Assembly: GCF_013315695.1 (NCBI RefSeq)
Contig: NZ_CP054353.1
DNA length: 64,000 bases
Origin: Escherichia coli
GTDB lineage: Bacteria; Pseudomonadota; Gammaproteobacteria; Enterobacterales; Enterobacteriaceae
Reading direction: 5' to 3' (one strand)
The notes under the pieces were generated by a model, which did not search any database, was not told where the DNA came from, and saw only the letters and a list, made by a program, of their open reading frames with translations. The translations under genes were made by a program, and so were the position numbers. Positions 8,517 to 48,738 of the stretch are shown piece after piece; position 1 is the stretch's first letter; every line of letters starts with the position of its first letter.

Positions 8517-11500
8517 ATGAGTAAACTTTTGGATCGCTTTCGCTACTTCAAACAAAAGGGCGAAACCTTTGCCGATGGTCACGGACAGGTGATGCATAGC
8601 AACCGCGACTGGGAGGACAGCTATCGCCAGCGTTGGCAGTTCGACAAAATCGTGCGTTCCACCCACGGTGTTAACTGTACAGGCTCCTGTAGCTGGAAAA
8701 TCTACGTTAAAAATGGTCTGGTGACCTGGGAAATCCAACAGACCGACTACCCGCGCACTCGCCCTGACCTGCCCAATCATGAACCTCGCGGCTGCCCGCG
8801 TGGCGCAAGTTACTCCTGGTATCTCTACAGCGCTAACCGTCTGAAATACCCGCTCATTCGTAAACGACTGATTGAACTGTGGCGCGAAGCCCTCAAGCAA
8901 CACAGCGATCCGGTACTGGCGTGGGCATCGATTATGAACGATCCGCAAAAGTGCCTGAGCTACAAACAAGTGCGTGGGCGCGGCGGGTTTATCCGCTCCA
9001 ACTGGCAGGAGCTAAACCAGCTGATTGCCGCTGCTAACGTCTGGACCATCAAAACTTACGGCCCGGATCGCGTTGCCGGTTTCTCGCCGATCCCGGCGAT
9101 GTCGATGGTTTCTTACGCCGCCGGAACACGTTATCTGTCGCTGTTAGGTGGCACCTGTTTAAGCTTCTACGACTGGTATTGCGACCTGCCGCCCGCCTCG
9201 CCGATGACCTGGGGCGAGCAAACCGACGTACCGGAATCTGCCGACTGGTATAACTCCAGTTACATCATCGCCTGGGGGTCTAACGTACCGCAGACACGTA
9301 CGCCGGACGCCCATTTCTTTACCGAAGTACGCTACAAAGGCACTAAAACCATCGCTATTACCCCTGACTACTCTGAAGTGGCCAAATTGTGCGACCAGTG
9401 GCTGGCACCGAAACAAGGCACTGATAGTGCCCTGGCAATGGCAATGGGCCATGTCATTTTAAAAGAGTTTCATCTCGATAATCCCAGCGATTATTTTATC
9501 AACTACTGCCGCCGCTACAGCGACATGCCGATGCTGGTAATGCTGGAACCTCGCGACGACGGCAGCTACGTACCCGGGCGCATGATCCGCGCGTCTGACC
9601 TGGTAGATGGACTGGGCGAAAGCAACAATCCGCAGTGGAAAACCGTGGCGGTTAATACCGCAGGTGAACTGGTGGTGCCGAACGGTTCGATTGGTTTTCG
9701 CTGGGGAGAAAAAGGCAAATGGAATCTGGAATCCATTGCCGCCGGTACGGAAACCGAATTGTCGTTAACTCTGCTCGGTCAACATGATGCCGTTGCAGGC
9801 GTGGCCTTCCCCTACTTTGGCGGCATTGAAAATCCGCATTTTCGCCGCGTAAAACACAATCCGGTCCTGGTGCGCCAATTGCCCGTTAAAAACCTGACAT
9901 TAGCCGATGGCAACACCTGTCCGGTCGTCAGCGTTTATGATTTGGTACTGGCGAATTATGGCCTCGATCGCGGGCTGGAAGATGAAAACAGCGCGAAAGA
10001 TTACGCTGAAATCAAACCGTACACCCCAGCCTGGGGTGAGCAAATTACCGGCGTGCCGCGCCAGTATATTGAAACCATCGCCCGTGAATTTGCCGATACC
10101 GCCCATAAAACGCATGGGCGTTCGATGATTATTCTCGGTGCTGGCGTCAACCATTGGTATCACATGGACATGAACTACCGCGGGATGATCAATATGCTGA
10201 TCTTCTGCGGTTGTGTCGGGCAAAGCGGTGGCGGCTGGGCACACTATGTCGGTCAGGAAAAACTGCGCCCGCAAACCGGCTGGCTGCCTCTGGCTTTTGC
10301 GCTCGACTGGAACCGACCACCGCGCCAGATGAACAGCACCTCGTTTTTCTACAATCATTCCAGCCAATGGCGCTATGAAAAAGTCTCTGCTCAGGAGTTA
10401 CTTTCACCGCTTGCCGATGCCAGTAAGTACAGCGGTCATCTGATTGATTTCAACGTTCGCGCCGAACGTATGGGCTGGCTACCTTCTGCGCCGCAGTTGG
10501 GGCGTAATCCGCTCGGGATTAAAGCTGAAGCCGACAAGGCCGGATTATCTCCCACAGAATTCACCACCCAGGCGCTGAAATCGGGCGATTTACGTATGGC
10601 CTGCGAACAACCCGATAGCGGCAGCAATCATCCGCGTAATTTGTTTGTCTGGCGTTCTAACCTGCTTGGTTCCTCCGGCAAAGGCCACGAGTATATGCAG
10701 AAGTATCTGCTGGGGACCGAAAGCGGGATTCAGGGCGAGGAACTCGGTGCCAGCGACGGGATCAAACCGGAAGAAGTCGAGTGGCAAACTGCGGCGATTG
10801 AAGGCAAGCTCGACCTGCTGGTGACGCTCGACTTCCGCATGTCCAGTACCTGCCTGTTCTCCGATATCGTTCTGCCCACCGCCACCTGGTACGAAAAAGA
10901 CGATATGAACACCTCGGATATGCATCCGTTTATTCATCCGCTTTCTGCGGCGGTCGATCCGGCGTGGGAATCACGCAGCGACTGGGAAATCTACAAAGGT
11001 ATCGCCAAAGCATTTTCGCAACTGTGCGTGGGTCATCTTGGCAAAGAAACCGACGTGGTATTACAACCACTGCTGCATGACTCTCCGGCAGAACTCTCCC
11101 AGCCGTGTGAAGTGCTCGACTGGCGCAAAGGCGAATGCGATCTAATCCCGGGTAAAACCGCGCCCAATATTGTGGCGGTGGAACGCGACTACCCTGCTAC
11201 CTATGAACGCTTTACCTCGCTCGGGCCATTGATGGACAAACTTGGCAACGGCGGTAAAGGGATTTCGTGGAATACCCAGGATGAAATCGATTTCCTCGGC
11301 AAACTCAACTACACCAAGCGTGAAGGCCCGGCACAGGGGCGTCCGCTGATTGACACCGCCATTGACGCATCAGAAGTGATTCTGGCTCTTGCACCGGAAA
11401 CCAACGGTCATGTTGCAGTCAAAGCGTGGCAGGCGCTGGGCGAGATCACCGGACGCGAACATACCCATCTGGCGCTGCACAAAGAGGACGAGAAGATTCG

Positions 11501-12257
11501 CTTTCGCGATATTCAGGCGCAGCCACGTAAAATTATCTCCAGCCCCACATGGTCCGGTCTGGAAAGCGATCACGTTTCCTATAACGCGGGATACACCAAC
11601 GTTCATGAGTTAATTCCGTGGCGCACGCTGTCGGGACGCCAGCAGCTCTATCAGGATCATCCGTGGATGCGTGCTTTTGGTGAAAGTCTGGTGGCTTATC
11701 GCCCGCCTATCGACACCCGTAGCGTCAGTGAAATGCGCCAGATACCGCCAAACGGCTTCCCGGAGAAAGCCCTTAACTTCCTGACACCGCACCAGAAATG
11801 GGGCATTCACTCAACCTACAGTGAAAACCTGCTAATGCTGACGCTCTCTCGCGGTGGACCGATTGTCTGGATCAGCGAAACCGATGCCCGTGAACTGACC
11901 ATTGTCGATAACGACTGGGTGGAAGTGTTTAACGCCAATGGCGCGCTGACGGCCCGCGCGGTGGTCAGCCAGCGTGTACCGCCGGGCATGACCATGATGT
12001 ATCACGCTCAGGAACGCATTATGAATATTCCAGGTTCGGAAGTAACCGGCATGCGCGGTGGCATTCATAACTCGGTCACCCGCGTTTGTCCGAAACCAAC
12101 GCATATGATTGGCGGTTACGCGCAGCTGGCCTGGGGCTTTAACTACTACGGCACTGTCGGCTCTAACCGCGACGAATTCATCATGATCCGCAAGATGAAG
12201 AACGTTAACTGGCTGGATGATGAAGGTCGCGATCAGGTACAGGAGGCGAAAAAATGA
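8517..12257 (+). CDS. narZ: Respiratory nitrate reductase Z alpha subunit
   Basis: Start MSKLLDRFRYFKQKGETF inside track ORF; FS0 cluster motif HGVNCTGSCSWK; 1246 aa. Confidence 0.92.
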   Translation: MSKLLDRFRYFKQKGETFADGHGQVMHSNRDWEDSYRQRWQFDKIVRSTHGVNCTGSCSWKIYVKNGLVTWEIQQTDYPRTRPDLPNHEPRGCPRGASYSWYLYSANRLKYPLIRKRLIELWREALKQHSDPVLAWASIMNDPQKCLSYKQVRGRGGFIRSNWQELNQLIAAANVWTIKTYGPDRVAGFSPIPAMSMVSYAAGTRYLSLLGGTCLSFYDWYCDLPPASPMTWGEQTDVPESADWYNSSYIIAWGSNVPQTRTPDAHFFTEVRYKGTKTIAITPDYSEVAKLCDQWLAPKQGTDSALAMAMGHVILKEFHLDNPSDYFINYCRRYSDMPMLVMLEPRDDGSYVPGRMIRASDLVDGLGESNNPQWKTVAVNTAGELVVPNGSIGFRWGEKGKWNLESIAAGTETELSLTLLGQHDAVAGVAFPYFGGIENPHFRRVKHNPVLVRQLPVKNLTLADGNTCPVVSVYDLVLANYGLDRGLEDENSAKDYAEIKPYTPAWGEQITGVPRQYIETIAREFADTAHKTHGRSMIILGAGVNHWYHMDMNYRGMINMLIFCGCVGQSGGGWAHYVGQEKLRPQTGWLPLAFALDWNRPPRQMNSTSFFYNHSSQWRYEKVSAQELLSPLADASKYSGHLIDFNVRAERMGWLPSAPQLGRNPLGIKAEADKAGLSPTEFTTQALKSGDLRMACEQPDSGSNHPRNLFVWRSNLLGSSGKGHEYMQKYLLGTESGIQGEELGASDGIKPEEVEWQTAAIEGKLDLLVTLDFRMSSTCLFSDIVLPTATWYEKDDMNTSDMHPFIHPLSAAVDPAWESRSDWEIYKGIAKAFSQLCVGHLGKETDVVLQPLLHDSPAELSQPCEVLDWRKGECDLIPGKTAPNIVAVERDYPATYERFTSLGPLMDKLGNGGKGISWNTQDEIDFLGKLNYTKREGPAQGRPLIDTAIDASEVILALAPETNGHVAVKAWQALGEITGREHTHLALHKEDEKIRFRDIQAQPRKIISSPTWSGLESDHVSYNAGYTNVHELIPWRTLSGRQQLYQDHPWMRAFGESLVAYRPPIDTRSVSEMRQIPPNGFPEKALNFLTPHQKWGIHSTYSENLLMLTLSRGGPIVWISETDARELTIVDNDWVEVFNANGALTARAVVSQRVPPGMTMMYHAQERIMNIPGSEVTGMRGGIHNSVTRVCPKPTHMIGGYAQLAWGFNYYGTVGSNRDEFIMIRKMKNVNWLDDEGRDQVQEAKK

Positions 12258-13798
12258 AAATACGTTCGCAAGTCGGCATGGTGCTTAACCTCGATAAATG
12301 TATCGGCTGCCATACCTGTTCGGTGACCTGTAAAAACGTCTGGACCGGACGCGAAGGCATGGAGTACGCATGGTTTAACAACGTCGAAACCAAACCGGGC
12401 ATTGGTTATCCGAAAAACTGGGAAGATCAGGAAGAGTGGCAAGGCGGCTGGGTGCGTGATGTGAATGGCAAGATCCGCCCGCGTCTGGGCAGCAAGATGG
12501 GCGTAATAACCAAAATCTTCGCCAACCCGGTGGTGCCGCAGATTGATGATTACTACGAACCTTTCACCTTCGACTACGAACATTTGCATAGCGCACCGGA
12601 AGGCAAACATATCCCTACTGCTCGCCCGCGTTCACTGATTGACGGCAAACGGATGGACAAAGTGATCTGGGGGCCAAACTGGGAAGAATTGTTGGGCGGC
12701 GAATTCGAAAAACGCGCCCGTGACCGCAACTTCGAGGCCATGCAAAAGGAGATGTACGGGCAGTTTGAAAACACCTTCATGATGTACCTGCCGCGCTTGT
12801 GCGAACACTGCCTCAATCCCAGTTGCGTGGCGACCTGCCCAAGCGGCGCTATCTACAAACGCGAAGAAGACGGCATTGTGCTGATCGATCAGGATAAATG
12901 CCGTGGCTGGCGTTTGTGCATTAGCGGTTGTCCGTACAAAAAAATCTACTTCAACTGGAAAAGCGGCAAGTCAGAAAAATGCATCTTCTGTTATCCGCGA
13001 ATTGAGTCAGGCCAACCCACCGTGTGCTCAGAAACCTGCGTGGGTCGCATCCGATATCTGGGCGTGCTGCTTTACGACGCTGACCGCATCGAGGAAGCGG
13101 CGAGCACCGAGCGCGAAGTTGACCTCTATGAACGCCAGTGCGAAGTATTCCTCGATCCACACGATCCCTCAGTGATCGAGGAAGCCCTGAAACAAGGTAT
13201 TCCACAAAACGTGATTGACGCTGCCCAGCGTTCGCCAGTCTACAAAATGGCAATGGACTGGAAACTGGCGCTACCGCTGCACCCTGAATACCGCACCCTG
13301 CCGATGGTCTGGTACGTTCCGCCGCTGTCACCGATTCAGTCCTACGCTGATGCGGGAGGTTTGCCGAAAAGCGAAGGCGTGCTGCCCGCCATCGAAAGCC
13401 TGCGTATTCCGGTGCAATATCTCGCCAATATGTTGAGTGCCGGTGATACCGGTCCGGTACTGCGGGCGCTGAAACGGATGATGGCGATGCGCCACTATAT
13501 GCGTTCACAAACCGTGGAAGGCGTTACTGATACTCGTGCCATCGACGAAGTAGGTCTGAGCGTCGCCCAGGTCGAAGAGATGTATCGTTACCTCGCCATT
13601 GCCAACTATGAAGACCGTTTTGTCATTCCAACCAGTCATCGGGAAATGGCGGGCGATGCCTTCGCAGAACGCAACGGCTGCGGTTTTACCTTTGGCGACG
13701 GTTGCCACGGCTCGGACAGCAAATTCAACCTGTTCAACAGTAGCCGTATCGATGCCATCAACATCACCGAAGTGCGCGACAAAGCGGAGGGCGAATAA
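12254..13798 (+). CDS. narY: Respiratory nitrate reductase Z beta subunit (Fe-S)
   Basis: 514 aa, multiple Cys clusters (CIGCHTCSVTCK etc.), overlaps narZ stop by 4 nt. Confidence 0.92.
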   Translation: MKIRSQVGMVLNLDKCIGCHTCSVTCKNVWTGREGMEYAWFNNVETKPGIGYPKNWEDQEEWQGGWVRDVNGKIRPRLGSKMGVITKIFANPVVPQIDDYYEPFTFDYEHLHSAPEGKHIPTARPRSLIDGKRMDKVIWGPNWEELLGGEFEKRARDRNFEAMQKEMYGQFENTFMMYLPRLCEHCLNPSCVATCPSGAIYKREEDGIVLIDQDKCRGWRLCISGCPYKKIYFNWKSGKSEKCIFCYPRIESGQPTVCSETCVGRIRYLGVLLYDADRIEEAASTEREVDLYERQCEVFLDPHDPSVIEEALKQGIPQNVIDAAQRSPVYKMAMDWKLALPLHPEYRTLPMVWYVPPLSPIQSYADAGGLPKSEGVLPAIESLRIPVQYLANMLSAGDTGPVLRALKRMMAMRHYMRSQTVEGVTDTRAIDEVGLSVAQVEEMYRYLAIANYEDRFVIPTSHREMAGDAFAERNGCGFTFGDGCHGSDSKFNLFNSSRIDAINITEVRDKAEGE

Positions 13799-14493
13799 TG
13801 CAGATCCTCAAAGTGATCGGCCTGTTGATGGAGTATCCGGACGAGCTGTTGTGGGAATGTAAGGAGGACGCGCTGGCGTTGATCCGCCGCGACGCACCGA
13901 TGCTTACGGATTTTACCCGCAACCTGCTTAACGCGCCGCTGCTGGATAAACAGGCCGAATGGTGCGAAGTGTTTGACCGTGGACGTACCACATCGCTGCT
14001 GCTGTTCGAACATGTTCATGCCGAGTCCCGCGATCGCGGCCAGGCAATGGTGGACCTGCTGGCGGAGTATGAAAAGGTCGGCCTGCAGTTGGATTGTCGA
14101 GAACTGCCCGATTATCTACCGCTGTATCTGGAGTACTTAAGCGTACTGCCGGACGATCAGGCGAAAGAAGGCTTGCTCAACGTTGCGCCGATCCTCGCCC
14201 TGCTTGGCGGACGCTTAAAACAACGCGAGGCTCCGTGGCATTCGTTGTTTGACGCCCTGCTGCAACTGGCGGGAAGTACACTTTCAAGTGACAGTGTCAC
14301 AAAACAAGTAAACAACGAGGAGCGCGATGACACCCGCCAGGCGCTGGATGCGGTGTGGGAAGAAGAACAGGTGAAGTTTATTGAAGATAACGCCACGGCG
14401 TGTGACAGCTCGCCGCTTAATCAATATCAGCGACGCTTTAGCCAGGATGTCGCGCCGCAGTATGTCGACATCAGTGCGGGAGGTGGGAAATGA
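13798..14493 (+). CDS. narW: Nitrate reductase Z assembly chaperone (delta)
   Basis: 231 aa NarJ-family protein, 1-nt overlap with narY. Confidence 0.9.
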
Positions 14494-15170
14494 TTCAGTA
14501 TCTGAACGTCTTTTTTTATGATATCTACCCGTACTTGTGTGGCACGGTTTTTATCCTTGGAAGCTGGCTGCGCTACGATTACGGGCAGTATACCTGGCGC
14601 GCCGCCTCCAGCCAGATGCTGGATAAACGCGGGATGGTGCTGTGGTCGAACTTGTTCCATATCGGCATTCTGGGGATCTTCTTCGGTCATCTGTTCGGCA
14701 TGTTAACGCCGCACTGGATGTACGCGTGGTTTCTGCCGGTGGCGGTAAAACAGCAGATGGCGATGATCCTCGGCGGAATATGCGGGGTATTGACGCTGAT
14801 TGGCGGTGCGGGGCTACTGGTGCGTCGTTTAACAAATCCGCGTATCAGGGCGACGTCTTCTGGTGCGGATATCCTGATCCTCGCCATTTTGTTAATTCAG
14901 TGCATTCTTGGGTTAACCACCATTCCTTTTTCAGCACAACATCCGGACGGCAGTGAAATGATGAAGCTGGTGGGCTGGGCGCAAAGCATTGTCACTTTCC
15001 AGGGCGGTGCATCTACGCATCTTGATGGTGTCGCCTTTATATTCCGCGTTCATCTGGTGCTTGGAATGACCATCTTTCTGCTCTTCCCGTTCACCCGACT
15101 GGTGCATGTCTGGAGCGCGCCGTTTGAGTACTTTACTCGTCGGTATCAGATTGTGCGTTCGCGGCGTTAA
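14490..15170 (+). CDS. narV: Respiratory nitrate reductase Z gamma subunit (cytochrome b)
   Basis: 226 aa membrane heme protein, ATGA overlap with narW. Confidence 0.9.
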
Positions 15171-18363: not shown

Positions 18364-18978
18364 ATGCAGCTTAATCATATTGTTAAAAGTCTGCTAATAA
18401 CGGGATTATTCACCACCAGTTCTTTGCCACTCCTCGCGGCGGAAGCCCCTAAAGACGCCACCGCAGCCACGCAACAAGCAAACAATTTACTCTACAACCA
18501 GTTGCCGTTTTCTGATAACACTGACTTTACTGATGCCCATAAAGGTTTTGTTGCCCCTATCCCTCAAGACGTGATTAAGGGCGAAAAAGGAAATGTTATC
18601 TGGGATCCACAACAATACGCTTTTATTAAAGAAGGTGATAAAGCCCCTGATACGGTGAATCCAAGTTTATGGCGTCAGGCGCAACTGATAAATATCAGCG
18701 GGTTATTCGAAGTAACTGAAGGTGTCTATCAGATTCGCAATCTCGATCTATCAAATATGACCATCATTGAAGGCAAAGAGGGTATTACCATCGTTGATCC
18801 CCTTGTTTCAGCAGAAACAGCCAAAGTGGGTATGGATCTCTATTACAAAAATCGCGACAAAAAACCGGTAGTAGCGGTTATCTACACACACAGTCATGTC
18901 GATCACTACGGTGGTGTTCGCGGCGTAATTGATGAAGCTGACGTTAAATCAGGCAAAGTTAAAATCTACGCGCCAGCC
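18364..18978 (+). pseudogene. Alkyl/aryl-sulfatase (YjcS/BDS1-like, metallo-beta-lactamase fold) N-terminal fragment, interrupted by IS1
   Basis: Signal peptide plus MBL motif THSHVDHYGG; reading frame runs directly into IS1 left end. Confidence 0.75.
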
Positions 18979-19033
18979 GGTGATGCTGCCAACTTACTGA
19001 TTTAGTGTATGATGGTGTTTTTGAGGTGCTCCA

Positions 19034-19309
19034 GTGGCTTCTGTTTCTATCAGCTGTCCCTCCTGTTCAGCTACTGACGGGGTGGTGCGTAACGGCAAAA
19101 GCACCGCCGGACATCAGCGCTATCTCTGCTCTCACTGCCGTAAAACATGGCAACTGCAGTTCACTTACACCGCTTCTCAACCCGGTACGCACCAGAAAAT
19201 CATTGATATGGCCATGAATGGCGTTGGATGCCGGGCAACAGCCCGCATTATGGGCGTTGGCCTCAACACGATTTTACGTCACTTAAAAAACTCAGGCCGC
19301 AGTCGGTAA
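19034..19309 (+). CDS. insA: IS1 InsA
   Basis: 91-aa [43 protein letters not shown]. Confidence 0.95.
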
Positions 19310-19731
19310 CCTCGCGCATACAGCCGGGCAGTGACGTCATCGTCTGCGCGGAAATGGACGAACAGTGGGGCTATGTCGGGGCTAAATCGCGCCAGCGCTG
19401 GCTGTTTTACGCGTATGACAGGCTCCGGAAGACGGTTGTTGCGCACGTATTCGGTGAACGCACTATGGCGACGCTGGGGCGTCTTATGAGCCTGCTGTCA
19501 CCCTTTGACGTGGTGATATGGATGACGGATGGCTGGCCGCTGTATGAATCCCGCCTGAAGGGAAAGCTGCACGTAATCAGCAAGCGATATACGCAGCGAA
19601 TTGAGCGGCATAACCTGAATCTGAGGCAGCACCTGGCACGGCTGGGACGGAAGTCGCTGTCGTTCTCAAAATCGGTGGAGCTGCATGACAAAGTCATCGG
19701 GCATTATCTGAACATAAAACACTATCAATAA
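19228..19731 (+). CDS. insB: IS1 InsB (transposase made as InsAB by -1 frameshift)
   Basis: 167-aa ORF overlapping insA; A-run slippery site upstream. Confidence 0.95.
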
Positions 19732-19746
19732 GTTGGAGTCATTACC

Positions 19747-20721
19747 GAAGCTCTCAATTTATGGGGAGATAAAGCCGAGATTATTCTCGCTCAACATCAC
19801 TGGCCAACCTGGGGCAACGATAACGTGGTCAAACTGCTTAAAAGCCAGCGTGATTTGTATCGTTACATCAATGATCAAACTCTGCGTATGGCAAATCAAG
19901 GGATGACCCGTGATGAAATTGCCGCAAACTTTAAACTGCCCTCTTCACTGGCTAATACCTGGGCGAATCGCGGCTATTACGGTTCGGTAAGTCATGACGT
20001 GAAAGCAACTTACGTGCTTTATCTCGGCTGGTTTGATGGTAACCCCGCGACGCTTGATGAACTGCCGCCAGAAGAAGGCGCAAAAAAATTCGTCGAGTAT
20101 ATGGGCGGTGCTGATGCCATTTTACAGAAAGCCAAACAGGATTATGACCAGGGTAATTTCCGCTGGGTTGCCCAAGTTGTTAGTAAGGTGGTGTTTACCG
20201 ATCCAAACAACCAGGCAGCGAGAAATCTGGAAGCTGATGCGCTTGAGCAGTTAGGCTATCAGGCTGAATCTGGGCCGTGGCGTAATTTCTATCTCACTGG
20301 CGCACAGGAATTGCGTAATGGCGTACAAAAATTACCAACACCAAATACTGCCAGCCCAGACACCGTGCGTGCGATGACGCCGGAGATGTTCTTTGATTAT
20401 CTTGCCGTCCATATTAATGGTGAGAAAGCGGCAGATGCCAAAACCGTGTTGAATTTCGATTTTGGTGAAGATGGCGGCACCTATAAAGTGGAGCTTGAAA
20501 ATGGTGTTCTCAATCATACCGCTGGTGTAGAGGCTTCGGATGCTGATGCCACTATCACTCTGTCTCGTGATGTATTGAACAAAATTGTACTGAAAGAAGA
20601 GACGCTGAAAGAAGCCACGGCCAAAGAAGATGTCAAAATTACTGGCAATGCGGAAAAACTCAACGAGCTGTTAGGTTATATGGATAATTTTGAATTTTGG
20701 TTCAATATAGTGACACCATAA
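19747..20721 (+). pseudogene. Alkyl/aryl-sulfatase C-terminal fragment (dimerisation and SCP2-like region)
   Basis: Open frame from IS1 junction through track ORF 19825..20721; same gene family as N-terminal fragment. Confidence 0.7.
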
Positions 20722-20733
20722 ATTTACTGCATA

Positions 20734-20758
20734 CCGGGCAGGTATCCTGCCCTTTTTT
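20734..20758 (+). terminator. Rho-independent terminator after sulfatase fragment
   Basis: ccgggcagg-tatc-cctgccc followed by TTTTTT. Confidence 0.5.
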
Positions 20759-20767
20759 GGTTAAAAA

Positions 20768-21865
20768 ATGGCTGAACGAAGAAAAACGCATCACTCATGG
20801 AAAACCCGCCGCGATATGGTTATTCGCGGCATGACGATTAGTTTGCCATGGTTTGCTTTTATCAATGTCAGTTTTGCATTGATAATTTTGCTGCGCCGTG
20901 TTCTGTTTAATGACCTTACTCCACCCTGGTTAAATGAAAAAAGCCTTATACATTCTATTGATATATCTGCAACGGGTATTCTGCTGATTTGCAGTGGTTT
21001 ACTACTCATCCCTCGGCAAAAAACATTACCTATCCAGGTGCTATTAGTTGCCCTGAGCCTGCTATGGTCATGGTGTAGTTATCACTTTATTGCGTACTGG
21101 ACGCTGCAGTTTGCTTATCCACTATGTGTATTATTAATGCTTAGTGGCGTTATCGCACTTTATTTCCATACCCCATCATTGCTCGCATTTGTCATTCCCT
21201 TATGGTTCACCACTCCAATAGCGAGTCTTATGCTTAATCAACAGATCAATATTCATTTTGCTGTTGTATGGTGTATTTTTTCACTGGCGCTATATGGTGG
21301 GCGACTCATTTTGTTACGTTGGTTTGAAGAAGCATGGGTACAAAACAGTTATAACAACCAGTTAATTAATCGCCTTGATGCATTAGCACATCGTGATCCT
21401 TTAACTGGGATAGCAAACCGACGTGCAATGAACAGTATCTTACACGACGCGATAGATAACGGCGGGTCATTTGCTCTTATTATGCTGGATGTCGATTTTT
21501 TTAAACGTTACAACGACACTTACGGGCATCCTGCTGGGGATCGTTGTCTAATACAAGTTGCCGACGCTCTACAGCGTTCAACTCGCCAGTCGGAGGATGT
21601 TGTTGTCCGTTATGGTGGCGAAGAGTTTGTCATCATACTTTTTAATGCAACATTGCCGGAAGCAGAGACGGTAGCAGCCAGAGTGAAGCAAGAACTTAAA
21701 CTGGCAGCTATCCCGCATCAGGCATCTGCTGTTAATGCATTCGTTACGGTTAGTCAGGGGATTACCTGTTCTGCTCCCGCAAAAACGGCTGAACAAATTA
21801 TTTCAGATGCCGACGCTGCGTTATACCGGGCGAAAGAAAGTGGGCGAAATCGATGGGAAAAATAA
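20768..21865 (+). CDS. Membrane-anchored diguanylate cyclase (GGDEF domain, GGEEF active site)
   Basis: N-terminal hydrophobic segments then RYGGEEF and DGC domain motifs; not a K-12 gene at this locus; start codon uncertain. Confidence 0.8.
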   Translation: MAERRKTHHSWKTRRDMVIRGMTISLPWFAFINVSFALIILLRRVLFNDLTPPWLNEKSLIHSIDISATGILLICSGLLLIPRQKTLPIQVLLVALSLLWSWCSYHFIAYWTLQFAYPLCVLLMLSGVIALYFHTPSLLAFVIPLWFTTPIASLMLNQQINIHFAVVWCIFSLALYGGRLILLRWFEEAWVQNSYNNQLINRLDALAHRDPLTGIANRRAMNSILHDAIDNGGSFALIMLDVDFFKRYNDTYGHPAGDRCLIQVADALQRSTRQSEDVVVRYGGEEFVIILFNATLPEAETVAARVKQELKLAAIPHQASAVNAFVTVSQGITCSAPAKTAEQIISDADAALYRAKESGRNRWEK

Positions 21866-22483
21866 TTAAATGATTCCATTCCTCTTTAGTATCCCTTTTA
21901 GCTTTGGTATCTGACATACAGCATCAGCAATCGCATTGATGTTCGGGGCATTATCCTGAAACCATTCGTGTCCCGGTCCCCATGTGCGCATGGTGCAGAG
22001 ATAACAGTCCACCAGCGTTAGTTGCTCTCCAAACACATACGGTTCAGCGGTCAATTGTGAATTCAGCCAGATATAAAGCGATTTACGATATTCAATAACA
22101 TTATTCTTTAACTGTTCGGGTGCGTCAGGAGCCCAACGCTTAGGGTAATCGGCGAAAGTGAACGTTGGATAGACATTAGCAACCAGCCAGACCAATAACC
22201 GTTGAAACTGCTAGCGTTCGGTGCGCCCAACCGGTGGCGCAAGGTCCGGGCGACGATCGAGAACCATCAATGCAATCGCCGCTGTCTCCGTCATAATCTC
22301 GTCATTTTCCAGCGCCAGTGTCGGAATCTGACACAACGGGTTCAGGGTTTTCAATAAATCGCGTGAAGTTCCCTCGTGGTCAAAACCACTGACATCAACG
22401 AACTGATAAGGAATATCAGCCAGTGTTAGCATCATCTCACTGATTGTAGTGCCCCATCCGGGTACGCCATACACCTTAATCAT
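21866..22483 (-). pseudogene. yncG: Glutathione S-transferase-like protein with in-frame amber (TAG) codon at 22211..22213
   Basis: Track ORFs 22211..22483 and 21866..22195 are in the same frame separated by a single TAG; together they cover GST N- and C-domains. Confidence 0.8.
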
Positions 22484-22749
22484 ATGCCCCTCACAATCTT
22501 TTAAAGATTAAGTCTAGGACAGCACACAGGTTAACCAGCAAAAGTATTTGTCATTTTTTCGTCAGTTGTATTATTCCCCTTCAGGATTGTAAGGGGATGT
22601 TTTGCATCGTTTATCGATAACGGGTAGGATGCTGCGCCGATAGTTTTATACCCATAAAGAATAATGGTGATAACTATCATCGCCAGGATGAATAAACATT
22701 GTTCATGGCAACTTATATGACTTTTTCATTAAAGCAATCAGGGAGAGCA

Positions 22750-27793: not shown

Positions 27794-27802
27794 GGCATTT
27801 AC
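27794..27802. repeat. 9-bp target-site duplication (ggcatttac), left copy, IS1 copy 2
   Basis: Identical 9-mer immediately flanks both IS1 ends. Confidence 0.8.
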
Positions 27803-27817
27803 GGTAATGACTCCAAC

Positions 27818-28321
27818 TTATTGATAGTGTTTTATGTTCAGATAATGCCCGATGACTTTGTCATGCAGCTCCACCGATTTTGAGAACGACAGCGACTTCC
27901 GTCCCAGCCGTGCCAGGTGCTGCCTCAGATTCAGGTTATGCCGCTCAATTCGCTGCGTATATCGCTTGCTGATTACGTGCAGCTTTCCCTTCAGGCGGGA
28001 TTCATACAGCGGCCAGCCATCCGTCATCCATATCACCACGTCAAAGGGTGACAGCAGGCTCATAAGACGCCCCAGCGTCGCCATAGTGCGTTCACCGAAT
28101 ACGTGCGCAACAACCGTCTTCCGGAGCCTGTCATACGCGTAAAACAGCCAGCGCTGGCGCGATTTAGCCCCGACATAGCCCCACTGTTCGTCCATTTCCG
28201 CGCAGACGATGACGTCACTGCCCGGCTGTATGCGCGAGGTTACCGACTGCGGCCTGAGTTTTTTAAGTGACGTAAAATCGTGTTGAGGCCAACGCCCATA
28301 ATGCGGGCTGTTGCCCGGCAT
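27818..28321 (-). CDS. insB: IS1 InsB
   Basis: Identical translation to other copies. Confidence 0.95.
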
Positions 28322-28515
28322 CCAACGCCATTCATGGCCATATCAATGATTTTCTGGTGCGTACCGGGTTGAGAAGCGGTGTAAGTGAACTGCAGTTGCC
28401 ATGTTTTACGGCAGTGAGAGCAGAGATAGCGCTGATGTCCGGCGGTGCTTTTGCCGTTACGCACCACCCCGTCAGTAGCTGAACAGGAGGGACAGCTGAT
28501 AGAAACAGAAGCCAC
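28240..28515 (-). CDS. insA: IS1 InsA
   Basis: Identical translation to other copies. Confidence 0.95.
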
Positions 28516-28570
28516 TGGAGCACCTCAAAAACACCATCATACACTAAATCAGTAAGTTGGCAGCATCACC

Positions 28571-28579
28571 GGCATTTAC
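28571..28579. repeat. 9-bp target-site duplication (ggcatttac), right copy, IS1 copy 2
   Basis: See left copy. Confidence 0.8.
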
Positions 28580-30662: not shown

Positions 30663-31181
30663 ATGTCCATCCGTTTTGCCCGCAAAGCCGACTGTGCTGC
30701 CATTGCGGAAATTTATAACCACGCCGTGTTGTATACGGCGGCTATCTGGAATGACCAAACGGTGGATGCAGATAATCGCATTGCCTGGTTTGAAGCGCGG
30801 ACTTTAGCTGGTTATCCAGTGCTGGTGAGTGAACAAGATGGCGTAGTGACGGGATATGCCTCGTTTGGCGACTGGCGTAGTTTCGATGGTTTTCGCCATA
30901 CCGTGGAACATTCGGTTTATGTCCATCCCGATCATCAGGGCAAAGGTCTGGGGCGTAAATTGTTAAGCCGATTGATTGATGAAGCGCGGGATTGCGGGAA
31001 GCATGTCATGGTCGCCGGGATCGAATCGCAAAATCAGGCTTCGCTGCATCTCCACCAGTCGCTGGGATTTGTCATCACCGCACAAATGCCGCAGGTGGGC
31101 ACTAAATTTGGGCGCTGGCTGGATCTGACATTTATGCAGTTGCAACTCGACGAGCGCACTGAACCGGACGCGATTGGATGA
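30663..31181 (+). CDS. mnaT: GNAT acetyltransferase (L-amino acid N-acyltransferase)
   Basis: Start MSIRFARKADCAAIAEIYN inside track ORF; 172 aa. Confidence 0.88.
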   Translation: MSIRFARKADCAAIAEIYNHAVLYTAAIWNDQTVDADNRIAWFEARTLAGYPVLVSEQDGVVTGYASFGDWRSFDGFRHTVEHSVYVHPDHQGKGLGRKLLSRLIDEARDCGKHVMVAGIESQNQASLHLHQSLGFVITAQMPQVGTKFGRWLDLTFMQLQLDERTEPDAIG

Positions 31182-31627
31182 ATCAGTCGCTCACCCTTGC
31201 TTTTTTGATTGCCGCCGGAATTGGTCTGGTAGTCCAGAACACGCTGATGGTGCGCATCACCCAGACCTCCTCTACCATTCTCATCGCCATGTTGCTGAAC
31301 TCACTGGTGGGGATTGTGCTCTTTGTTTCTATTTTATGGTTTAAACAAGGTATGGCGGGGTTTGGCGAACTGGTGTCCAGCGTGCGCTGGTGGACACTTA
31401 TACCTGGCTTGCTGGGATCGTTTTTTGTCTTCGCCAGTATCAGCGGATATCAGAATGTGGGAGCGGCGACAACTATTGCAGTACTGGTCGCCAGCCAGCT
31501 GATTGGCGGTCTGGTGCTGGATATCTTTCGCAGTCATGGCGTACCACTACGGGCGTTGTTCGGCCCAATTTGTGGCGCAATTTTACTTGTGGTTGGCGCC
31601 TGGCTGGTGGCCAGGCGCACATTTTAA
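31178..31627 (+). CDS. ydcZ: Inner-membrane protein (DUF606)
   Basis: 149 aa hydrophobic, ATGA overlap with mnaT. Confidence 0.85.
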   Translation: MNQSLTLAFLIAAGIGLVVQNTLMVRITQTSSTILIAMLLNSLVGIVLFVSILWFKQGMAGFGELVSSVRWWTLIPGLLGSFFVFASISGYQNVGAATTIAVLVASQLIGGLVLDIFRSHGVPLRALFGPICGAILLVVGAWLVARRTF

Positions 31628-32024: not shown

Positions 32025-32079
32025 GGTGATGCTGCCAACTTACTGATTTAGTGTATGATGGTGTTTTTGAGGTGCTCCA

Positions 32080-32355
32080 GTGGCTTCTGTTTCTATCAGC
32101 TGTCCCTCCTGTTCAGCTACTGACGGGGTGGTGCGTAACGGCAAAAGCACCGCCGGACATCAGCGCTATCTCTGCTCTCACTGCCGTAAAACATGGCAAC
32201 TGCAGTTCACTTACACCGCTTCTCAACCCGGTACGCACCAGAAAATCATTGATATGGCCATGAATGGCGTTGGATGCCGGGCAACAGCCCGCATTATGGG
32301 CGTTGGCCTCAACACGATTTTACGTCACTTAAAAAACTCAGGCCGCAGTCGGTAA
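32080..32355 (+). CDS. insA: IS1 InsA
   Basis: Identical translation to other copies. Confidence 0.95.
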
Positions 32356-32777
32356 CCTCGCGCATACAGCCGGGCAGTGACGTCATCGTCTGCGCGGAAA
32401 TGGACGAACAGTGGGGCTATGTCGGGGCTAAATCGCGCCAGCGCTGGCTGTTTTACGCGTATGACAGGCTCCGGAAGACGGTTGTTGCGCACGTATTCGG
32501 TGAACGCACTATGGCGACGCTGGGGCGTCTTATGAGCCTGCTGTCACCCTTTGACGTGGTGATATGGATGACGGATGGCTGGCCGCTGTATGAATCCCGC
32601 CTGAAGGGAAAGCTGCACGTAATCAGCAAGCGATATACGCAGCGAATTGAGCGGCATAACCTGAATCTGAGGCAGCACCTGGCACGGCTGGGACGGAAGT
32701 CGCTGTCGTTCTCAAAATCGGTGGAGCTGCATGACAAAGTCATCGGGCATTATCTGAACATAAAACACTATCAATAA
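32274..32777 (+). CDS. insB: IS1 InsB
   Basis: Identical translation to other copies. Confidence 0.95.
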
Positions 32778-32846
32778 GTTGGAGTCATTACCGGATTTTC
32801 TTAACCCGTACTATACACATAGGGGCAATGATAAAAGGTGGCAAAA

Positions 32847-34484: not shown

Positions 34485-35279
34485 TTATTGACCATTGTCG
34501 CCTTCGCGGGTTAGCCACCAGGCTCCCAGGATCGGCAAGGTTGTTACCAACATAACCAGCAGTGCCACGACGTTGGTTACCGGTACATCACGTGGTCGCC
34601 CAAGCTGATTGAGTAACCACAACGGTAACGTTCGTTCATGACCTGCCGTAAAAGTCGTAACGATGATTTCATCGAACGACAAAGCAAACGCCAGCATTCC
34701 TCCTGCCAGTAGCGCCGAACTGAGATTCGGCAACACTACGTAGCGGAAGGTTTGCCAGCCATTGGCCCCAAGATCCATTGACGCCTCAACCAGACTCCAC
34801 GAGGTGCGGCGAAAACGGGCGATGACATTGTTAAACACCACCACTACGCAAAAAGTCGCATGGCCGACCACGATGGTGAAAAATCCCGGCTCCAGATTGA
34901 TGGTTTTAAAGGCGGTTAATAGCGCCAGACCAGTGACAATGCCCGGCAGCGCAATGGGCAGCAGCAGTAACAGCGAAATGGCATTTTTGCCGAAAAAGTC
35001 TCGTCGCCACAGCGCAGCAGCTGCCAGCGTCCCTAACACCAGCGCGATTAATGTCGCCAGCGCTGCCACTTTAAGTGACAGTGTCACGGAATCAAGAATA
35101 TCACTACGCTGTGCTGCCACGCTAAACCAGCGCAGCGTCAGGCCTTGCGGTGGAAAACTAAACGCCGCATCTTCAGTGTTAAATGCATAGGCGGCGATAA
35201 TCAGGATAGGAAAATGTAGGAAAACTACGCCGCCCCAGGCCGCCAGTTTGAGGAAAAACGGTGCGCGTTCAGAGTGCAT
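34485..35279 (-). CDS. ydcV: ABC transporter permease
   Basis: 264 aa, operon ydcSTUV. Confidence 0.88.
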
Positions 35280-45520: not shown

Positions 45521-46114
45521 TCATTTTTTACGTGCCAGCATCGTGGCGAAACGCAGTTTAATACGATTACCGTTGGCGTCGGTGCGGTGCAGCTCGCCGA
45601 CGTCTTCATTGTATTTCACCCTCTCCCAGCCTTCGTAATATCGACGTAATTCTCCCTCTTTGAAGGCAAACGGGAAGCCGACGGTACATGGATAATCAGC
45701 GGTATCCATCGCCGCCACAATCAGGTTGTAACCACCAGGTTTAGTGCAACGTTGCATATTGGCAATCAGCCCTGGGATGGTTTTAGCCTCAAGGAACATC
45801 AGCACCACAGTCGAAAGAATAAAATCGTACTGTCCATCAAATGTGAGGTTATTCAGATCAACGACCCGAGTGTGTAAATTATCCAGATTTTCAATAGATT
45901 TAATGCGCTCAACGTTGGCGATACTCATGGCATTTTTATCCCATGCGTCAACATCATAACCATTGGCTGCCAGGTAAAGACTGTTACGACCATTGCCACA
46001 GCCCAGATCCAGCGTTTTACCCGGTTTAACCACTTTCACCGATTCCAGTACTTCAGAGTGTGTGCGGGTTAATTCATATTTATCAGTAAAATAGTTTTCG
46101 TCACGAATGATCAT
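45521..46114 (-). CDS. tehB: Tellurite methyltransferase
   Basis: 197 aa SAM-dependent methyltransferase. Confidence 0.9.
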
Positions 46115-47103
46115 TCTTTGTCCTCTGCTTTCATTAAAACGGCGCGCTCGGTTCTGACTAACAATTTTCCCTGCATCAGAAGCGCAAAAGTACGGATGAG
46201 CAGTATTGCAATAATAAAATTGGTAAAGATAAACAGCGGCACCGCCAGCGTATGGAAAAATCCATTATCGCTGCCACTCCCCAGATGCAAACCGGTGGTT
46301 GCCAGTGCAGATACGCCGAACGAGAAACTCCAGAATGAAGCATTAAATGGCTGGGAGAGATACCATGGCATCAGACGTAGCATAAACAGCAGTTGCAGCA
46401 GTCCATAACCGAAAAGCATTTTCGCCAGCGTGTCACCCTCGCCGCCGTTGACGCTCAGCCAGGCACTACAGGCCACCAGCGCAGGAGCGAGCTGAATGCC
46501 GAGTGATGTCCTCAGTGCCGTGGGTAATTCTCCCGAACTGCGCAGACGCTGCAAGATCACCGGTTCCAGGCTTAGCCATGAGAAAACGCCTGCGCCTAAA
46601 AACACCAGACCGGCGTCGGTGTAGCCCAACGCACCACAGGCCATTGCGCTGATAAAGTTGTTGGCAACTGTCGGCAGATACAGTCCAGGCGTGGTAGCTT
46701 CTTCAGGGTGAGATCCGCGCCATAATCCCGCAGTTTGCCAGGCGGCATAAGCCAACTGAACCACGACACCAAAACTGAACAGGCACACCGCCAGTGGGCG
46801 AAACCACGGAACAAAACCAATCGCCACCAGCATCGTCGTTGCCGGAAACAAACTCACAAAACTGCTCAGCACTGGATGGCGCACTTCTGCCAGCACGCTA
46901 TGCGGAAAGCGTATGAGTCGGGTAATAAATGCGCCAGTCAATAATCCCCAGATGATCATCGCCAGAATCACCAGCCCATCCCCCAACCAGTGGCTGACCT
47001 GCCAAACCTGGCTGGCATAGCGCCAGGCAAATCCCATCCCTATCGTCCCCAACACAATACCAAAGTAGCCTGCCGGCAAATTGAGCACTTTATCGCTCTG
47101 CAT
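46111..47103 (-). CDS. tehA: Tellurite resistance / dicarboxylate-type membrane transporter
   Basis: Start [15 protein letters not shown] inside track ORF; 330 aa; ATGA overlap with tehB. Confidence 0.9.
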
Positions 47104-47226: not shown

Positions 47227-48207
47227 ATGCGCAAATATCGTCTAAGTGAAGAACAGCGAGCCTTTAGTTATCAGGAAGATGGCACTAAAAAAAATGTGTT
47301 ATTACGGCAGATTATCGCCATTAGCGATTTTAACGATGTGATAGCAGGAACCGCTGGCGGCTGGATCGATCGCGAAACGGTGTTAGCACAGGAAGGAAAT
47401 TGCTGGATTTACGACCAGAATGCTATTGCGTTCGGCGGAACGGTGATTTCCGGGAATACGCGTATCACCGGCACCAGCGTGCTGTGGGGAGAGGTTTACG
47501 CAACGGATAATGTCTGGATCGATAATAGTGAAATCAGCCAGGGTGCATATATAAGTGACAGTGTCACCATTAGTGACTCATTAGTTTGCGGTCAATGTAG
47601 AATATTTGGTCACGCCTTAATTGATCAACATTCTATGATCGTCGCCGCACAAGGCTTAACGCCCGACCATCAACTCCTGCTACAAATTTATGATCGCGCG
47701 AGGGTTAGCGCCTCGCGGATTGTCCACCAGGCACAAATTTATGGCGATGCCGTCGTCCGGTATGCTTTTATTGAACATCGCGCCGAAGTTTTTGATTTTG
47801 CCAGTATTGAGGGTAATGAAGAGAACAACGTCTGGCTATGCGATTGTGCTAAAGTCTACGGTCACGCGCAGGTGAAAGCTGGCATAGAAGAAGATGCCAT
47901 TCCGACGATTCATTACAGTTCGCAGGTGGCGGAATATGCCATTGTGGAAGGTAATTGTGTGTTAAAACATCATGTCTTGATTGGCGGAAATGCCGTGGTA
48001 CGTGGCGGACCGATTCTGCTCGACGAGCACGTTGTCATACAAGGTGAGAGCCGTATTACAGGTGCGGTGATAATTGAAAACCATGTGGAGTTAACCGACC
48101 ACGCCGTCGTTGAAGCCTTTGATGGCGACACGGTTCATGTCCGTGGTCCAAAAGTCATTAACGGCGAGGAGCGCATTACGCGAACGCCGCTGGCAGGGTT
48201 ATTGTGA
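47227..48207 (+). CDS. ydcK: Hexapeptide-repeat protein
   Basis: 326 aa. Confidence 0.85.
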
Positions 48208-48738
48208 ATCGATAATACGCGCGTATAAGTTCACATCATCATAGGCATCATTCAGAAACTCAGCCTGTTTCAGGCAACCTTCAAGGATAAAACCATTGCG
48301 CAAAGCGACCTGGTTGCTTTGCGGATTGTCCACCCGACATTTGATCACGAAGCGTCTAAGTTCACCAGACTGAGCGTAATGATGAATCAATGCCTGCAGC
48401 GCCTGAGAAATGATCCCCTGCCCCTGATGAGATTCGTCCAGCCAGTAGCCGATTTCAGCGGTTTTATTCAGTGGTTCAATACGATTAAACGAGATAACGC
48501 CGATAAGTTCATCTTCTTTGAAAATCATGAACATTTTGGCATATCCGCGTTGATGCAACATTACATTGCCCTGCACCGTTTTTCGCGTGTCCTCTTCACT
48601 TTGAACAAACTGCGGCCAGTTTAGCGACTGCTGTAGCCAGGTTCTATTTTTACAGATTAACTGATAAAGAGGTGTGACATGACTTTCTGCAACAGCATGT
48701 AATTCAAGTGATTCACTTACTTTTATCGTTTCGGTCAT
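48199..48738 (-). CDS. rimL: Ribosomal protein L7/L12 serine acetyltransferase
   Basis: Start [13 protein letters not shown]; 179 aa; 3' ends of ydcK and rimL overlap. Confidence 0.88.

Follow-up and report, generated by a model that had tools for sequence, protein, structure and literature searches.

Distances of −4 and −1 between neighbouring genes are strongly over-represented across all prokaryotes (PMC10666635), and as a class such overlaps occur beyond chance. In prokaryotes, Escherichia coli included, they are the most frequent distances between genes on the same strand. Genome-wide, 707 of 2,987 E. coli pairs (24%) lie within −8 to +6, and short overlaps are 4.5-fold enriched among pairs that encode subunits of a complex (PMC10666635). 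Examples are the termination–reinitiation (TeRe) pairs hyfHI, astDB, ydbH/ynbE along with menDH (Huber et al. 2019, 2023), in which coupling has been measured. Such pairs are co-directional, with ATGA or TGATG overlaps (−4 or −1) and an intragenic Shine–Dalgarno (SD) sequence. Coupling requires an overlap or a very short gap, and collapses when gaps reach about 20 nt (PMC10666635). Reporter tests on five native E. coli −4 pairs detected coupling in four, and in four of the five the SD had an influence; the tested ATGA pair bioBF relies on de novo initiation (PMC6728339). For E. coli, it has been proposed, though not as a strict requirement, that local structure keeps ribosomes from initiating de novo at the internal TIR (Huber et al. 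2019); in three of the four coupled pairs, hyfHI, astDB and ydbH/ynbE, the TIR or its vicinity is predicted to be stably structured. In trpBA, atpHA, rplJL and galTK, the downstream gene's translation is likewise linked to that of the upstream gene within one mRNA; here, the upstream ribosome melts a structure that masks the ribosome-binding site (RBS). Across overlapping pairs in general, relative translation (TE ratio) varies about as much as in non-overlapping pairs (PMC5318159).

The window analysed here, a stretch of 64,000 nucleotides, is E. coli chromosome and includes the narZYWV genes for the second nitrate reductase, which we take to be an established operon expressed in stationary phase. 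The nar genes and the pairs mnaT/ydcZ, tehA/tehB and ydcK/rimL are all intact open reading frames, in agreement with how RefSeq annotates a strain whose nar region is 100% identical. The nar genes and their junctions are as follows.

8517..12257, + strand: narZ, nitrate reductase Z alpha subunit, 1246 aa, stop TGA (TIGR01580 narG equivalog, 2332 bits)
12241..12246, + strand: SD AGGAGG for narY, within the narZ coding sequence, 7-nt A-rich spacer; CAGGAGGC invariant in 13 species
12254..12257, + strand: ATGA, narY start over narZ stop, 4 nt (−4 in 13 of 13 narZYWV orthologues)
12254..13798, + strand: narY, beta (Fe–S) subunit, 514 aa, stop TAA (TIGR01660 narH, 981 bits)
13786..13790, + strand: SD GGAGG for narW, within narY, 7-nt spacer; GGAG core invariant in 13 species
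13796..13800, + strand: TAATG, narY stop and narW start, 1-nt overlap at 13798 (−1 in 13 of 13 orthologues)
13798..14493, + strand: narW, NarJ-type molybdenum-cofactor assembly chaperone, 231 aa, stop TGA (NF011628/PRK15054, 509 bits)
14479..14485, + strand: SD GGAGGTG for narV, within narW, 4-nt spacer; GGAGG invariant in 12 species
14490..14493, + strand: ATGA, narV start over narW stop, 4 nt (−4 in 12 of 12 orthologues)
14490..15170, + strand: narV, gamma (heme b membrane) subunit, 226 aa (TIGR00351 narI, 414 bits)

Family models and the solved NarGHI structure back both the identification of the genes and the placement of their starts. NarZ covers its profile completely (1–1235 of 1235; cutoff 1084 bits), and NarY, NarW and NarV also score above the cutoffs of their families. 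Among solved structures, the products have homologues in chains B and C of PDB 1Q16 and in the NarJ structure 8JZD: NarY 1–506 aligns to NarH 1–506 (1Q16_B) and NarV 2–225 to NarI 1–224 (1Q16_C), while NarW spans profile PRK15054 end to end (1–231 of 231). The order alpha, beta, chaperone, gamma on one strand is that of a NarGHJI-type operon. That the locus is of the narZ rather than the narG type follows from the RefSeq annotation of the identical strain, which names narU and narZ; the window proteins are also nearer to NarZ, NarY, NarW and NarV queries than to K-12 NarG, NarH, NarJ and NarI. A locus of the narZ type is expected next to narU, in the chromosomal region of fdnG/yddE, and the window fits this.

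The sequence-only reading had described start/stop overlaps of 4, 1 and 4 nt at the three nar junctions, and three further overlaps elsewhere in the window. A recount on the window confirms every one of its coordinates, and RefSeq annotates the nar junctions at identical positions. There is no intergenic room for a terminator between the four genes, and in a consensus scan of 6700–16300 matches to promoters and terminators stay at or below the expectation from shuffled sequence. The overlaps themselves are ordinary and already known: Huber et al. 2023 tabulate the K-12 nar, teh and mnaT junctions one by one in their supplement (PMC10666635), and beyond correct annotation their significance is small. 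What is added here is the invariance of the narZYWV pattern, its fixed contrast with narGHJI, and the SD-containing short gaps of distant Proteobacteria.

A comparison across Enterobacteriaceae, which the sequence-only reading had put forward as a check, covers 13 species with NarY identities of 87–99% (12 for narW/narV, one locus, L011, being truncated). The −4/−1/−4 pattern and the SD cores are invariant throughout. As its second codon, narV has att, ata, aca, atg, agc or agt, giving I, T, M or S at NarV residue 2, while the first base of this codon is always A, so that ATGA is kept. Third-position variation over the last six narZ codons ranks among the lowest 1% of all windows (11/1240); the constraint is weak at the 3′ end of narW (26/225) and absent at that of narY (289/508). 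Synonymous-site constraint was considered as evidence of functional SDs and rejected, as it is significant solely at the narZ 3′ end.

The E. coli paralogue narGHJI, which encodes nitrate reductase A, consists of the same four types of gene, ordered alike, and likewise overlaps at all three junctions with the SD inside the upstream gene. The pattern differs: K-12 narGHJI is −4/−4/−1, the second and third junction types being swapped relative to narZYWV, and each of the two patterns is stable across genera. NarY and NarH align residue by residue from their first positions, whereas NarV has one extra, variable residue compared with NarI; this residue sits at position 2, and the A of its codon completes the narW TGA. 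Of the two operons, narZYWV has the stronger SDs (AGGAGG, GGAGG and GGAGGTG, against GGAGA, GGAG and GGAGG in narGHJI). Conceivably, though we regard it as very improbable, the junction patterns and SD strengths of the paralogues give the stationary-phase and the anaerobic enzyme different ratios of chaperone to subunit synthesis. Junction geometry would then be quantitatively tuned, as opposed to a feature of generic compaction.

A wider survey examined the junctions of 80 out of 597 NarH-encoding loci, and its counts refer to the matches listed. Among these, 30 loci are of the narGHJI type, all or nearly all from Enterobacterales, with overlaps at 30/30, 29/30 and 21/29 of the successive junctions. 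In one locus (L018), whose narG is broken into two frames, the alpha/beta junction is −4. Beyond Enterobacterales, the matches listed mostly have gaps of 10–60 nt, with the SD in the gap, at the beta/chaperone and chaperone/gamma junctions, as in the homologous operons of Marinobacter, Halomonas, Cellvibrionales and others. Since gaps replace overlaps there, the enzyme does not need the overlaps. The overlaps are thus real, stable within the lineage and dispensable for the enzyme; they represent a choice of expression architecture at the level of the lineage rather than a requirement of the enzyme.

The sequence-only reading had taken the overlaps as indicating translational coupling. The geometry does fit: all three junctions join same-strand genes by a 4-nt ATGA or a 1-nt TAATG overlap, and each SD lies within the upstream open reading frame, is strong and has optimal spacing (4–7 nt). 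This arrangement is what termination–reinitiation requires, and it is invariant in 13 species, but "indicating" is too strong a word, an overlap being no proof of coupling. In geometry the nar junctions resemble those of the TeRe pairs with measured coupling, and narZ/narY encode subunits of one complex. A literature search for measurements of coupling in narZYWV or narGHJI found none; a Sphingopyxis paper inferred coupling from the close or overlapping genes of its nar cluster.

With this caution, narZYWV is best read as an ordinary polycistronic operon in which translation is likely coupled by termination–reinitiation at the fused start/stop junctions; we consider this reading, with coupling that is partial, to be probable. 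The operon encodes a heterotrimeric membrane enzyme, NarZ–NarY–NarV, together with a private chaperone, NarW. On finishing narZ, narY or narW, a ribosome would already sit on the next AUG, and the SD 4–7 nt before the start, within the last codons of the upstream gene, could retain it. The geometry, the SDs with their conservation and the gene identities are observed here; that reinitiation then takes place, without the ribosome leaving the mRNA, and how much it contributes to synthesis, we infer. The output of the four proteins would be tied together, and no untranslated gap would be offered to Rho or RNases. Free 30S subunits probably also initiate at each SD, because the SDs are strong and predicted to be accessible; partial rather than obligatory coupling is therefore likely. 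A rationale of equal stoichiometry would be loose for two of the three junctions, as NarW is a chaperone and not a stoichiometric subunit.

Alternatively, the overlaps may reflect compact packing, with the downstream genes translated mainly by de novo 30S initiation at their own SD. ATGA and TAATG would then be kept since insertions or deletions at a junction harm two coding sequences, and since the A at +4 and the A-rich spacer favour initiation. We regard this as possible but rather unlikely. In its favour are SDs that are strong and optimally spaced, TE ratios that are equally variable in overlapping and non-overlapping pairs, the lack of significant local structure at the junctions, the undiminished third-position variation at the end of narY, and the 10–60 nt gaps in other operons. 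There is also a precedent in bioBF, which shares with nar a 4-nt ATGA and the lack of a predicted extended double-stranded structure around the TIR; the bioF SD is very weak and de novo initiation nevertheless occurs, whereas the nar SDs are strong. Against packing stand the four coupled pairs among the five E. coli −4 pairs tested, the enrichment of short overlaps for complex subunits, and a geometry that is absolutely invariant across 13 species while flanking bases and NarV residue 2 change. A back-up in-frame TGA four codons past the first narW stop (14503–14505) also speaks against it: with this second stop so near, the first one is not kept merely to avoid a long extension.

Predicted RNA structure bears on both readings. 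Segments of ±45 nt and of −99 to +30 around each junction were folded, in the window and 12 orthologues. The ±45 nt folds have z-scores of +1.71 (narZ/narY), −1.51 (narY/narW) and −0.08 (narW/narV) in the window, none of them significant. From the −99 to +30 folds, the predicted unpaired probabilities of the three TIRs are 0.60, 0.48 and 0.21 in the window, with orthologue medians of 0.56, 0.49 and 0.43, as compared with 0.40–0.46 for genes initiated from a 5′UTR. Overall, the predicted openness of the nar TIRs is similar to or above that of 5′UTR-initiated neighbours, which favours de novo entry and hence packing. For the same reason, the occlusion of internal TIRs invoked by Huber et al. is not predicted at the nar junctions in the window or the orthologues, and in this they differ from hyfHI, astDB and ydbH/ynbE. 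The narY/narW SD does pair weakly with CCUC in narW codons 4–5 (z = −1.5; 19 of 200 shuffles equal); as a masking structure, this modelled pairing is not convincing. Classical coupling through a structure-masked RBS, as in trpBA, atpHA, rplJL and galTK, is rejected for nar, in that no significant or conserved occlusion is predicted in the window or the 12 orthologues.

At the narZ 3′ end, a run of six A (12249–12254) lies just before the stop (GCG AAA AAA TGA), and the narY frame is −1 relative to narZ. A low-level −1 slip on this run, continuing into narY to give a NarZ–NarY fusion protein, is compatible with the geometry (tRNA-Lys could re-pair one base back with the stop in the A site, the next codon being the narY AUG), but it is extremely improbable and was rejected: the narZ frame lacks a heptamer of the canonical X XXY YYZ form, folding predicts no stimulatory structure, spacers rich in A are common to good initiation sites in general, and the run is not conserved (ACAAAA in L013, TCAAAA in L014, AAAACAA in L015, GTAAAA in narG).

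The other overlaps of the window are listed below. The first three are those already claimed from sequence, and the recount reproduces them; the fourth is an addition.

31178..31181, + strand: 4-nt ATGA overlap of mnaT (30663..31181) and ydcZ (31178..31627); K-12 entry in PMC10666635 supplement
46111..46114, − strand: 4-nt ATGA overlap of tehA (46111..47103) and tehB (45521..46114); K-12 entry in PMC10666635 supplement
48199..48207: convergent 9-nt 3′ overlap of ydcK (47227..48207, + strand, TGA) and rimL (48199..48738, − strand, TAA), TTATTGTGA
35269..35279, − strand: 11-nt overlap of ydcU and ydcV (ABC transporter permeases), from the recount

Translational coupling cannot apply to ydcK and rimL, whose overlap is convergent. 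Distances of −4 or −1 are found in 5 of the 24 same-strand neighbour pairs of the window, which is not unusual in its share of such junctions. The ydcT/ydcU junction, also new in the recount, measures 0 nt.

The window is E. coli chromosome from fdnG to hrpA. Its 7.4-kb stretch around the nar junctions is matched in 5,406 of 5,426 complete E. coli genomes, with 100% identity in E. coli AF10 (NZ_OZ546911.1). Each annotated AF10 CDS was mapped onto the window and tested for an intact ORF; the junctions were also read directly. The remaining window genes include mnaT-ydcZ, ydcSTUV, tehAB, ydcK and rimL.

Overlapping genes and their positions
8517..12257, + strand: narZ
12254..13798, + strand: narY; ATGA junction with narZ at 12254-12257
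13798..14493, + strand: narW; TAATG at 13796-13800, base 13798 common to narY and narW
14490..15170, + strand: narV; ATGA junction with narW at 14490-14493
30663..31181 and 31178..31627: mnaT and ydcZ, 4-nt overlap
46111..47103 and 45521..46114, − strand: tehA and tehB, 4-nt overlap
47227..48207 (+) and 48199..48738 (−): ydcK and rimL, convergent 9-nt overlap at 48199..48207

The sequence-only reading had described overlaps of 4, 1 and 4 nt along narZYWV, the same arrangement at mnaT/ydcZ and tehA/tehB, and overlapping convergent 3' ends of ydcK and rimL at 48199..48207. All are correct by ORF mapping, and for nar also by direct read. The observation is confirmed in every detail, yet it is already known and ordinary. 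RefSeq gives the coordinates, and the PMC10666635 supplement gives the distances for narZ/Y, narY/W, narW/V, narG/H, narH/J, narJ/I and K-12 tehA/B and mnaT/ydcZ. Junctions of −4 or −1 (negative figures are overlaps, positive ones gaps, in nt) account for 5 of the 24 same-strand neighbour pairs of the window, about as often as in the genome as a whole. The minus-strand ABC-transporter operon ydcSTUV, absent from the sequence-only reading, has an 11-nt ydcU/ydcV overlap (35269..35279) and a 0-nt ydcT/ydcU gap (36210/36211). AF10 carries the RefSeq labels narU, narZ, ‘narH’ (narY), narW and ‘narI’ (narV); PGAP places ‘narH’ on 12254..13798 and ‘narI’ on 14490..15170, so going by gene names alone may lead one to mistake one paralogous operon for the other.

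The nar start codons are no annotation artefact: NarY 1-506 aligns to NarH 1-506 (crystal structure 1Q16), NarV 2-225 to NarI 1-224, and NarW matches its own NCBIfam equivalog end to end. Ahead of every downstream start, still within the upstream gene, lies a strong Shine-Dalgarno (SD) sequence.

SD sites of the downstream nar genes
12241-12246, inside narZ: AGGAGG for narY, 7-nt A-rich spacer
13786-13790, inside narY: GGAGG for narW, 7-nt spacer
14479-14485, inside narW: GGAGGTG for narV, 4-nt spacer

Six A residues (12249..12254) directly precede the narZ stop; narY lies in the −1 frame, so a −1 slip would fuse NarZ and NarY. The run is probably just the A-rich initiation spacer, because it is not kept in Pluralibacter or Kluyvera orthologues, nor in narG. 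Antisense ORFs of 125-185 aa inside narY and narW (12233..12610, 12951..13508 and 13636..14019, all −), at which the reference record has no annotated gene, probably arise by chance on the strand facing the coding sequence.

The junction arrangement is what termination-reinitiation needs. Among five native E. coli ATGA pairs, four were coupled and in four the SD was important, with bioBF initiated de novo (Huber et al. 2019, PMC6728339). Same-strand neighbours in E. coli most often stand at −4; 707 of 2,987 pairs fall within −8..+6 and such pairs are 4.5-fold enriched for complex subunits, and gaps of ~20 nt nearly abolish coupling (Huber et al. 2023, PMC10666635). Overlap alone is nevertheless no proof of coupling. 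Relative translation efficiency varies about equally in overlapping and non-overlapping pairs (Burkhardt et al. 2017, PMC5318159), and strict coupling has been proposed to need local structure blocking de novo initiation at internal SDs (Huber et al., PMC6728339). RNA folding and unpaired probability revealed no such structure at the three nar junctions: fold z-scores are +1.7 (narZ/narY), −1.5 (narY/narW) and −0.1 (narW/narV). Predicted unpaired probabilities over −15..+3 are 0.60, 0.48 and 0.21 for narY, narW and narV (orthologue medians 0.56, 0.49 and 0.43), and 0.40-0.46 for the own-leader genes narU, narZ and yddE. A literature search found no published coupling measurement for narZYWV or narGHJI. 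The coupling that the sequence-only reading saw in the overlaps is a reasonable inference; most likely it is partial, with ribosomes both reinitiating and loading independently at good binding sites.

As in narZYWV, all three junctions of K-12 narGHJI overlap, in the order −4/−4/−1 rather than −4/−1/−4. NarV has one residue more than NarI, at position 2, which goes with the swapped last junction; the A that opens narV codon 2 is also the last base of the narW stop, TGA. The cross-species comparison, a check suggested by the sequence-only reading for Enterobacteriaceae, used a NarY scan of species-representative genomes (80 of 597 NarH-encoding loci, among the matches listed); the four genes per locus were placed by tblastn and junction distances then computed.

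Junction distances among the matches listed (alpha/beta; beta/chaperone; chaperone/gamma)
narZYWV-type, 13 loci: −4 in 13/13; −1 in 13/13; −4 in 12/12 (one locus truncated)
narGHJI-type, 30 loci, all or nearly all Enterobacterales: −4 (25), −1 (5); −4 (26), −8 (2), −1 (1), +1 (1); −1 (17), −4 (4), +2/+3 (7), one uncertain
More distant Proteobacteria, 37 loci: −4 in 23/36; overlap in 4/37; overlap in 7/37

The −4/−1/−4 pattern is thus constant in narZYWV-type loci (Escherichia, Citrobacter, Lelliottia, Enterobacter, Pseudocitrobacter, Pluralibacter, Kluyvera and isolate RIT691). In the distant Proteobacteria among the matches listed, junctions without overlap usually leave 10-60 nt between the genes, with an SD in that gap. 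Across the three groups, therefore, the overlaps change little over long times in a given lineage, the alpha/beta ATGA being the most persistent, yet a working nitrate reductase operon does not require them. The survey agrees with COG-pair medians over 1,695 species, −1 for both NarG-NarH (adjacent columns, apparently quartiles, −4 and +12) and NarH-NarJ (likewise −4 and +2; PMC10666635 supplement). In Enterobacter sp. R1(2018), narG lies in two reading frames (259..4001 of its locus; tblastn HSPs 1-915 and 892-1247), a frameshift or assembly error.

When the narZYWV junctions of 13 species were aligned, the SD cores CAGGAGGC, GGAG and GGAGG and the ATGA/TAATG/ATGA motifs were invariant, while flanking bases vary. 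NarV has I, T, M or S as its second residue, with A as first codon base in every case. Over the six codons at the narZ 3' end, third-codon-position entropy is 0.33, compared with 0.90 for the gene on average, and 11 of 1,240 windows are as low; constraint is weaker at the narW end (26/225) and absent at that of narY (289/508). Since a back-up in-frame TGA follows the narW stop after only four codons (14503-14505), retention of the first stop is not readily explained as a means to avoid a long C-terminal extension. A at +4, however, is also known to favour initiation.

Outside nar, mnaT/ydcZ and tehA/tehB belong to the same ATGA class as narZ/narY; neither pair encodes a known complex, and inspection of the mnaT/ydcZ junction showed no clear SD. 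The convergent ydcK/rimL overlap cannot involve translational coupling and implies at most overlapping 3' transcript ends.

The window also carries three 100%-identical IS1-family copies of ~770 nt each (18976..19747, about 27802..28573 and 32025..32793), which the otherwise near-identical AF10 lacks. Identical 167-aa ORFs of InsB type lie at 27818..28321 (−) and 32274..32777 (+), and a profile scan of the second gave a match to NF033558, IS1 family transposase. One copy replaces ~379 nt of an alkyl/aryl-sulfatase gene (18364..20721), leaving ORFs 18364..19005, 19228..19731 and 19825..20721; the AF10 gene is intact (1977 nt). AF10 in turn has the IS5-like ISKpn26 within a sensor/diguanylate cyclase gene (20435..22683 of its locus, L001); the window is without it at about 20768..21865 and has an uninterrupted ORF there.
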